A DNA stretch of 64,000 nt from Escherichia coli. Lineage in GTDB: Bacteria > Pseudomonadota > Gammaproteobacteria > Enterobacterales > Enterobacteriaceae. The translations under genes were made by a program, and so were the position numbers. Location: NCBI RefSeq assembly GCF_002854065.1, contig NZ_CP024147.1; one strand, given 5' to 3'. Every line of letters begins with the position of its first letter. Within the stretch, counting starts at the first letter, position 1. Positions 24,404 to 26,058 of this stretch are shown here, piece after piece. Below the pieces are notes generated by a model, which saw only the letters and a program-made list of their open reading frames with translations, was not told the DNA's origin and made no database searches.

Positions 24404-24772
24404 ATGAGCAACATTACCATTTATCACAACCCGGCCTGCGGCACGTCGCGTAATACGCTGGAGATGATCCGCAACAGCGGCACAGAACCGACCATTATCC
24501 ATTATCTGGAAACTCCGCCAACGCGCGATGAACTGGTCAAACTCATTGCCGATATGGGGATTTCCGTACGCGCGCTGCTGCGTAAAAACGTCGAGCCGTA
24601 TGAGGAACTGGGTCTTGCAGAAGATAAATTTACTGACGATCGGTTAATTGATTTTATGCTGCAACATCCTATCCTGATTAACCGTCCGATTGTGGTGACG
24701 CCGCTGGGAACTCGCCTATGCCGCCCCTCGGAAGTGGTGCTGGAAATTCTGCCAGATGCGCAAAAAGGCGCG
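24404..24772 (+). pseudogene. arsC: Native arsC truncated after codon 123 by IS1 (ORF continues 27 codons into IS1)
   Basis: 91% identical at protein level to arsC 9275-9700 up to …LEILPDAQKGA, then IS1 end GGTAATGACTCC…. Confidence 0.8.
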
Positions 24773-24787
24773 GGTAATGACTCCAAC

Positions 24788-25291
24788 TTATTGATAGTGT
24801 TTTATGTTCAGATAATGCCCGATGACTTTGTCATGCAGCTCCACCGATTTTGAGAACGACAGCGACTTCCGTCCCAGCCGTGCCAGGTGCTGCCTCAGAT
24901 TCAGGTTATGCCGCTCAATTCGCTGCGTATATCGCTTGCTGATTACGTGCAGCTTTCCCTTCAGGCGGGATTCATACAGCGGCCAGCCATCCGTCATCCA
25001 TATCACCACGTCAAAGGGTGACAGCAGGCTCATAAGACGCCCCAGCGTCGCCATAGTGCGTTCACCGAATACGTGCGCAACAACCGTCTTCCGGAGCCTG
25101 TCATACGCGTAAAACAGCCAGCGCTGGCGCGATTTAGCCCCGACGTATCCCCACTGTTCGTCCATTTCCGCGCAGACGATGACGTCACTGCCCGGCTGTA
25201 TGCGCGAGGTTACCGACTGCGGCCTGAGTTTTTTAAATGGCGGAAAATCGTGTTGAGGCCAACGCCCATAATGCGGGCGGTTGCCCGGCAT
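24788..25291 (-). CDS. insB: IS1 InsB
   Basis: 167-aa ORF …[21 protein letters not shown]…. Confidence 0.85.
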
Positions 25292-25485
25292 CCAACGCCA
25301 TTCATGGCCATATCAATGATTTTCTGGTGCGTACCGGGTTGAGAAGCGGTGTAAGTGAACTGCAGTTGCCATGTTTTACGGCAGTGAGAGCAGAGATAGC
25401 GCTGATGTCCGGCAGTGCTTTTGCCGTTACGCACCACCCCGTCAGTAGCTGAACAGGAGGGACAGCTGATAGAAACAGAAGCCAC
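25210..25485 (-). CDS. insA: IS1 InsA
   Basis: 91-aa [46 protein letters not shown]…. Confidence 0.85.
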
Positions 25486-25540
25486 TGGAGCACCTCAAAA
25501 ACACCATCATACACTAAATCAGTAAGTTGGCAGCATCACC

Positions 25541-26058
25541 TTACCAGGGATACGATGTTCTTCACCGCGATGAAAAACATTCTGAGTAAAGGTAATGTCG
25601 TTCATATACAGAACGAAGAAGAGATCGACGTAATGTTGCATCAGAATGCCTTCGTCATTATTGATACATTAATGAATAATGTATTTCATTCTAATTTTCT
25701 CACTCAAATCGAACGATTAAAACCTGTCCATGTCATTATTTTCTCCCCCTTTAATATTAAACGCTGCCTGGGGAAAGTGCCGGTGACCTTTGTTCCGCGG
25801 ACTATCACTATCATTGATTTTGTCGCACTCATCAATGGCAGTTACTGCTCCGTGCCTGAAGCGAATGTGTCACTTTCGCGCAAGCAACATCAGGTTCTGA
25901 GCTGCATTGCGAATCAAATGACAACGGAAGATATTCTGGAGAAACTGAAAATATCGCTAAAAACGTTCTACTGCCATAAACACAATATCATGATGATCCT
26001 CAATCTTAAGCGGATCAATGAGCTGGTACGCCATCAGCATATTGATTATCTGGTGTGA
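25541..26058 (+). CDS. dctR: DctR (YhiF) LuxR-family regulator, 5' end (first ~4 codons and promoter) replaced by IS1; ORF track starts at internal Met 25555
   Basis: Sequence from 25541 reads …TRDTMFFTAMKNILSKGNVVHIQ… as recalled for DctR. Confidence 0.75.

Follow-up and report, generated by a model that had tools for sequence, protein, structure and literature searches.

How did a single insertion sequence come to stand between an arsC gene without its end and a dctR gene without its beginning, with no target-site duplication around it and no trace of the genes that lie between arsC and dctR elsewhere? The window, by which we mean the whole stretch of 64,000 nucleotides that was analyzed, is a piece of E. 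coli chromosome that runs from a ~23-kb island through the acid-fitness island to dctA, with the chu haem-uptake locus sitting between dctR and yhiD. The original prediction held that yhiS and slp occupy the gap in K-12 and that an IS1-mediated adjacent deletion removed them here. Comparison with the reference order agreed on the first point, giving arsC-yhiS-slp-dctR, with yhiS disrupted by IS5 in K-12. The slp-dctR pair is nearly universal in E. coli and its loss is unusual: at least 80% of the interval is held in one place in 4,322 of 5,426 complete genomes, and both slp and dctR are kept in 59 of 60 records drawn as an even sample.

The IS1 copy and its two junctions

The features of the locus, in window coordinates, are the following.

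24300 to 24403, plus strand: older ars scar, in which the ars promoter/operator region is joined to the last ~50 nt of arsB; the junction lies near 24340
24404 to 24772, plus strand: 3'-truncated arsC, nt 1-369, codons 1-123 of 141, with codon 123 complete
24773 to 25540, minus strand: complete IS1 of 768 bp, no target-site duplication, IRR-side end at arsC and IRL-side end at dctR
24773 to 24795: insB-side terminal inverted repeat of IS1, 23 nt, imperfect; junction left by the leftward 1,896-bp deletion
25518 to 25540: insA/promoter-side terminal inverted repeat of IS1, 23 nt, imperfect; junction left by the rightward 999-bp deletion
24788 to 25291, minus strand (read from 25291 to 24788): insB' frame, 167 aa
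25210 to 25485, minus strand (read from 25485 to 25210): insA, 91 aa
25527 to 25556, plus strand: hybrid promoter-like site, with -35 TTGGCA in the IS1 end, an 18-nt spacer and -10 TACGAT in dctR
25541 to 26058, plus strand: 5'-truncated dctR, nt 14-531; the junction is inside codon 5 and the stop is at 26058
25555 to 25557, plus strand: in-frame ATG, Met10 of DctR, with a weak AGGG 6 nt upstream; it would give 167 aa

In length, terminal repeats and frameshifted reading frames the element is a regular IS1; what it lacks is the 8-9-bp target duplication. Its terminal arms (24773-24795 and 25518-25540) are 78% complementary, the A6C programmed -1 frameshift motif TTTAAAAAAC at 25228-25237 (IS1 positions 304-313) joins the insA and insB' frames, and a PIRL-like promoter of IS1 was recovered on the minus strand, reading from 25533 to 25506. 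The sequence is 100% identical to RefSeq copies annotated as IS1B family transposase with a programmed frameshift, and also to the IS1 copies that two close relatives carry at this locus. A complete IS1 without a 9-bp duplication, set between codon 123 of arsC and about codon 5 of dctR, had been predicted, and re-inspection for a direct repeat left this description standing. The 9 bp flanking the element on the left (AAAGGCGCG) and on the right (TTACCAGGG) match at 3 of 9 positions, as many as chance would give, and no flanking direct repeat of 7-14 bp was found around the window copy.

The two junctions differ greatly in their distribution. The left junction, arsC nt 369/IS1, was found on at least 18 public contigs and is present in CUWW06, in GCA_900449015.1 and in draft and metagenome contigs (L009-L016). 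The right junction, IS1/TTACCAGGG (dctR nt 14), was seen in the window only and rests on one assembly; a 32-mer search of JGI metagenome contigs returned 0 matches, and the junction is absent from all 5,426 complete E. coli genomes.

The nearest complete relatives are CUWW06, which differs from the window by 19 mismatches in 64 kb, and strain 100416, with 18 mismatches in 45 kb. Across the series formed by 100416, GCA_900449015.1, the window and CUWW06, the flanks are ~99.9% identical. The lineage looks IS1-rich, as an IS1-containing query found 35-39 matching places per lineage genome vs a median of 11. The scar just upstream of arsC, where arsR and most of arsB have been deleted, is common to CUWW06, 100416 and the more distant strain R8.

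Intermediates in close relatives

Strain 100416 carries the arrangement arsC-yhiS-CAGAATATA/IS1/CAGAATATA-slp-dctR. Here the same IS1 sits between yhiS and slp in the orientation that it has in the window, it is bounded by a 9-bp duplication, and its neighbors are an intact arsC, a frameshifted yhiS and an intact dctR. GCA_900449015.1 reads arsC nt 369/IS1/CAGAATATA-slp-dctR, the window reads arsC nt 369/IS1/dctR nt 14, and CUWW06 reads arsC nt 369/IS1/dctR nt 94. Relative to 100416, 1,896 bp are missing on the left, and on the right 999 bp are missing in the window and 1,079 bp in CUWW06.

Because the IS1 of 100416 has CAGAATATA on both sides, the absence of a target duplication in the window is secondary. 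Both present junctions must likewise be secondary to an insertion inside the interval that was later deleted, because GCA_900449015.1 pairs the left junction of the window with the right junction of 100416, and because a contig from the window's own branch (L057, below) keeps IS1/CAGAATATA-slp. The original prediction therefore stood in part. The loss is associated with IS1 and the missing duplication does result from deletion, as had been proposed, but the intermediates in 100416 and GCA_900449015.1 do not fit a single event.

The IS1/CAGAATATA junction common to these genomes is best read as a mark of descent and not as a hotspot coincidence, because no two IS1 insertions of other lineages occupy the same nucleotide. 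We found six such insertions in the same interval; none coincides with the site in 100416, and each has its own 9-bp duplication. IS1 prefers AT-rich targets, and the original insertion site, with a GC content of 26.5%, fits this preference. The IS1 copies in the interval, seven in all, share one orientation, which we discarded as evidence of an orientation bias: the search joins same-strand pieces only and ranks them first, and so the uniformity is an ascertainment effect.

The right-hand deletions could be assigned to branches with private alleles. The window carries 29680 A and 31597 T, the latter giving HutW P268L, and CUWW06 carries 26864 T and 30983 T. The ChuS allele of the window is common across lineages; the rare ChuS of CUWW06 and the HutW P268L of the window served as branch markers. 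None of the private alleles occurs in GCA_900449015.1. Contig L055 has the CUWW06-private SNPs together with an undeleted IS1/CAGAATATA-slp-dctR, and contig L057 has the window-private SNPs together with an undeleted IS1/CAGAATATA junction; slp and dctR are intact in both, and both contigs end inside IS1, so that it is the state of the right junction that is read from them. Contig L056, an independent assembly, has the CUWW06-private SNPs together with the right junction of CUWW06. Two further contigs considered as additional deletions (L058 and L059) were rejected, since they start inside dctR without an IS1 tail and are plain contig breaks.

With each branch assigned by 2 SNPs and under the assumption of no recombination across the 64-kb stretch, these contigs show that the two right-end deletions arose independently, each within its own sub-branch, because each sub-branch has a sister contig in which slp is still joined to IS1. 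The same end of IS1 evidently acted twice and the other end once.

How the deletions may have been made

We assign a probability of roughly 0.8 to the following reading: one IS1 copy, inserted between yhiS and slp, made stepwise one-ended deletions from both of its ends, most likely by intramolecular transposition. IS1 would have entered the very AT-rich yhiS-slp spacer in the ancestor of the lineage, generating the 9-bp duplication CAGAATATA. Its insB-side end would then have been joined to arsC nt 369, at a cost of 1,896 bp: the final 57 nt of arsC, the spacer, and yhiS, which by then carried its frameshift. In the sub-branch of the window, the insA-side end would next have been joined to dctR nt 14, with the loss of 999 bp that ran from the slp promoter through slp and the slp-dctR spacer to nt 13 of dctR. 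In the sister sub-branch of CUWW06, the same IS1 end would have made a separate deletion of 1,079 bp. Each step would be an intramolecular target-primed (replicative) transposition of IS1 to a nearby site, in which the element stays, the intervening DNA is discarded and no duplication is formed. As a net result, slp and the pseudogene yhiS are lost, dctR is stripped, and arsC is altered at its C-terminus but redundant.

The structures and the order of events are shown by the series of genomes and contigs, and we infer that the deletions most likely depended on transposase. The left step was read from 100416 vs GCA_900449015.1, and the right steps from L057 vs the window and from L055 vs CUWW06 and L056. 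In these comparisons, IS1 is intact, its orientation is unchanged and there is no duplication. At each step one flank is that of the precursor, while the second IS1 end now abuts sequence that used to lie a short distance away, and the missing DNA was contiguous with that IS1 end. Section 5.2.1 of PMC9330008, citing Turlan & Chandler 1995, describes intramolecular target-primed transposition of IS1/Tn9 as a source of deletions that leave the remaining element without direct repeats. More generally, absent duplications are usually ascribed to adjacent deletion or to recombination between IS copies (PMC11708052).

Recombination is the alternative that deserves the most attention, although we consider it unlikely. 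A second IS1 in direct orientation would have landed in arsC or dctR, and RecA-dependent homologous recombination with the resident copy would have removed the DNA between them, in one or more steps. The resulting sequence would be indistinguishable from the one observed, also lacking a duplication (PMC9330008 section 5.2.1; PMC11708052); the lineage has many IS1 copies, and in other lineages the interval is prone to IS1 insertion. This route, however, takes two events per step, or six instead of three for the three deletions, and the two right-end deletions would have called for separate new insertions no more than 80 bp apart. Among the genomes and contigs examined, none from the lineage carried two IS1 copies in the interval. 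A host factor of the IS-excision enhancer (IEE) type, acting together with the IS1 transposase, could also have promoted the deletions, and IEE-mediated excision or deletion has been reported for the IS3, IS1 and IS30 families (PMC9330008 section 5.2.4); we rate this a very small chance.

The remaining alternatives concern what happened rather than how. Judged from the window alone, the simplest explanation for one IS without a duplication and ~2.9 kb of missing DNA is that IS1 landed at arsC codon 123 or at dctR codon 5 and made one adjacent deletion to the other junction. The hybrid structure of GCA_900449015.1 and the slp still attached to IS1 in L057 make this highly improbable. It is similarly hard to credit that the window is an assembly artefact, in which two real IS1 copies, at the ancestral site and at dctR codon 5, were collapsed and slp was dropped. 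In favor of such an error, IS1 is multi-copy in the lineage and the right junction was found nowhere but in the window, but the 64-kb sequence passes through IS1 without a break, which points to long-read or finished data, and the analogous junction of CUWW06 was confirmed by L056, so that such deletions are real in this lineage. Even with an error of this kind, a junction of IS1 with dctR nt 14 must exist physically. Finally, there is next to no chance that yhiS and slp were naturally absent and that IS1 is a simple insertion whose duplication decayed. Four lineage members have slp and dctR at this position, the interval is widely kept in E. coli at the frequencies given above, and the flanks of IS1 break two open reading frames. 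The original claim that yhiS and slp were truly lost in the lineage is upheld, since natural absence was checked and both genes are present here in near-identical relatives.

Consequences for arsC, slp and dctR

On each side of IS1 stands the remnant of a gene. On the left, the arsC frame continues into IS1 as far as a stop at 24851-24853, which creates a 149-aa ArsC-IS1 fusion in which residues 124-141, the native C-terminus, are replaced by 26 residues read from IS1. Residues 1-123 match the ArsC of K-12 and of the lineage apart from lineage variants, and the Pfam domain ArsC (PF03960) is recovered over its full profile at residues 7-115 with 85.5 bits, including the Cys12 region. The fusion is annotated as arsC in CUWW06 (WP_248790368.1) and was found on at least 18 public contigs. 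The truncation probably costs the cell little, because it leaves the ArsC domain whole and because an arsRDABC cluster 15 kb upstream includes another complete arsC (9275-9700).

On the right, slp and its promoter are missing, and dctR has lost its Shine-Dalgarno sequence, Met1, codons 1-4 and the slp-dctR promoter. According to PMC4222967, slp and dctR share one operon, which is transcribed from the YdeO-bound promoter of slp; this promoter is under YdeO/GadE control. The prediction that dctR had been deprived of its promoter and start is thus accurate: nt 1-13 and everything upstream are deleted. What persists is the C-terminal GerE/LuxR helix-turn-helix (PF00196, 37 bits). In the intact gene, Met1 has an AGGAG 6 nt upstream, and the N-terminus MFL[IV]IT[RK]D (MFLIITRD in DctR) is conserved even in homologues of only 52% identity. 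In an AlphaFold model of DctR with a moderate overall pLDDT of 72 and a value of 89 for the first ten residues, residues 2-5 are predicted to form beta-strand 1 of a receiver-like domain, and the best structural matches of the model are StyR, RcsB, EvgA and FixJ, which are NarL/FixJ-type regulators.

We rejected the possibility that Met10 is the true start, which would make the coding sequence in the window intact; the AGGAG at Met1, the nine conserved residues and beta-strand 1 all speak against it. A look-up of the 167-aa frame that begins at Met10 indicated that gene callers pick this start in many intact loci, and that some assemblies have a homopolymer error there. Met10 is the only plausible restart for dctR in the window, and its product would be predicted to lack beta-strand 1.

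Could the remnant still be expressed? The original prediction pointed to read-out from IS1, which is unlikely, as both the promoter of IS1 and insAB face arsC and not dctR. What remains is either a weak hybrid promoter or antisense read-through of the whole IS1. The hybrid promoter-like site resembles the IS1 fusion promoters entered in Table 1 of PMC9330008 (Prentki et al. 1986) in having an outward TTGGCA, a -35-like hexamer 8 nt inside the IS1 end, and a -10-like hexamer at the right distance in the flank. Unlike them as tabulated there, it is a consensus match only (9/12, with the 18-nt spacer), the region has 5 such sites vs 3.6 expected from shuffles, and the predicted transcription start falls downstream of the Met10 ATG. 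We thus consider a hybrid promoter a low-probability explanation of any dctR expression. Overall, dctR is probably dead, as it has no ribosome-binding site, start codon, beta-strand 1 or promoter, and the IS1 promoter points away from it.

Both right-end deletions started from the same IS1 end, removed slp, decapitated dctR and spared chuS, and their end points lie no more than 80 bp apart. Such a pair of independent events could reflect selection for the loss of slp-dctR in this IS1-rich lineage instead of mutational noise, although we think that it probably does not. In a weaker variant of this idea, the IS1 end and the dctR flank might form a working hybrid promoter that makes a shortened DctR free of acid-stress control.

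The locus is a new instance of a mechanism that has been known for about fifty years, and it represents routine IS-driven gene decay. Adjacent deletions mediated by IS1 were reportedly described by Reif and Saedler in 1975. As in the IS1 adjacent deletions of Turlan & Chandler 1995, in the form in which PMC9330008 and PMC12428005 cite them, the IS is kept intact in the same orientation and without a duplication. One flank is unchanged per step, and nested or alternative end points proceed from the same IS end. The difference from that work is that the deletions occurred in natural isolates and not in a selection experiment, and that both ends of one copy acted in turn. The present case also recalls two examples of gene loss in natural populations. 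IS1-related large chromosomal deletions in the nfsB region of clinical E. coli, which Wan and colleagues are said to have reported in 2023, likewise have IS1 at the junction of a chromosomal deletion that removed neighboring genes; they concern another locus, are much larger and go with a phenotype under selection, nitrofurantoin heteroresistance. The IS-bounded "black hole" losses of Shigella and enteroinvasive E. coli, such as that of the cadA region, are pathoadaptive. Those losses resemble the present one in that near-universal genes disappear in association with IS elements, in an IS-rich lineage, with end points that differ by sublineage. Unlike the Shigella losses, which have been shown to be pathoadaptive, the loss of slp-dctR is known here from sequence alone. 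Our literature search found no paper that pairs IS1 with slp, dctR or arsC.

Two lessons for annotation follow from the locus. RefSeq labels the ArsC-IS1 fusion as a normal arsC, and the Met10 start called in intact dctR loci could hide a truncation such as this one. For the biology of IS1, public genomes preserve the intermediates of the whole series, from the insertion to the left deletion and on to two alternative right deletions, and they provide a natural illustration of how a single IS1 copy can eat into the DNA on both sides of itself, more than once. The slp-dctR genes have been linked to virulence regulation and to the ability to survive organic-acid stress at low pH (PMC4222967; PMC8259166), and PMC8259166 describes DctR as a repressor of LEE-type adherence functions in O157 and a modulator of ETT2 in avian strains. 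With slp-dctR lost, strains of this lineage may differ in acid-stress and virulence-regulation traits.

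An older deletion upstream of the clipped arsC

The arsC copy truncated by IS1 lies directly downstream of an older rearrangement, and the two features occupy the following window positions:

24300-24403, junction near 24340: ars deletion scar, directly 5' of arsC, earlier than the IS1 clipping
24404-24853 (8105-8554 in the near-identical relative CUWW06, L002): ArsC-IS1 read-through ORF, RefSeq WP_248790368.1

The older deletion removed arsR and reduced arsB to its last ~50 nt, so that this arsB remnant now follows directly on the ars promoter/operator region, with arsC immediately downstream. 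By sequence comparison, the same arsR-arsB deletion is present in CUWW06, in the near-identical relative 100416, and in the more distant strain R8, and therefore arsC was orphaned before IS1 clipped it. The 149-aa read-through product is carried in RefSeq as an ordinary arsC, without a disrupted-gene label.

A second set of ars genes is found on a genomic island that also bears an integrase module; the set comprises one complete arsRDABC operon plus a further arsD-arsA-arsH cluster:

~1-23500: genomic island, upstream of dinQ
5394-5747: arsR-like gene of the arsRDABC operon
listed between the arsR-like gene and arsB: arsD and arsA of the same operon
7973-9262: arsB of the same operon
9275-9700: arsC of the same operon, intact second copy
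~11800-15300: second arsA/arsD/arsH cluster
17452-18756: integrase

The intact island arsC and the IS1-clipped arsC are 86% identical.

Neighboring loci and the reading of dctR

Next to dinQ, the window has a single AgrB-family antisense sRNA (24144-24228), compared with two (agrA and agrB) in K-12; within it, an extra A at 24198 is private to the window. On the other side of the IS1 copy lies one further locus:

26119-35070: chu/shu haem-uptake locus (chuS, chuA, shuT, hutW, hutX, chuY, shuU, and an ATPase), between dctR and yhiD

This locus is likewise inserted between dctR and yhiD in O157/O55-type strains, and the right-end deletions did not reach it in either sub-branch (window and CUWW06).

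Across dctR loci from many assemblies (L017-L026), gene callers often start the gene at the internal Met10 (167 aa), intact loci included. Several long-read assemblies among these differ by GGG/GGGG in the homopolymer at codons 7-8, which forces the Met10 start there. In GCA_900449015.1, a relative that retains slp, single-base indels occur at ~1 per 300 bp in this region (L007, L030, and L050), fragmenting chuS, dctR, slp, mdtF, and other genes. We took these indels to be sequencing errors and based comparisons on substitutions only.

IS1 insertions in the interval and on the island

The yhiS-slp-dctR interval is IS1-prone. Other E. coli lineages carry six independent IS1 insertions in a ~1-kb stretch of it (L004, L005, and L041-L044), each with its own 9-bp duplication; among them is a copy in the dctR Shine-Dalgarno region in R8 and another within slp in MS14387. 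The common orientation of these copies is probably an artefact of the search's hit ranking.

Further copies occur on the island in relatives. In 100416, an extra IS1 (L003 3233-4000) lies at the equivalent of window 20268-20275 with an 8-bp duplication, CATAGAAG, and in GCA_965266025.1 an IS1 adjoins window position 22910 (L013 1-125). These additional insertions provide more evidence for continuing IS1 activity in the lineage.
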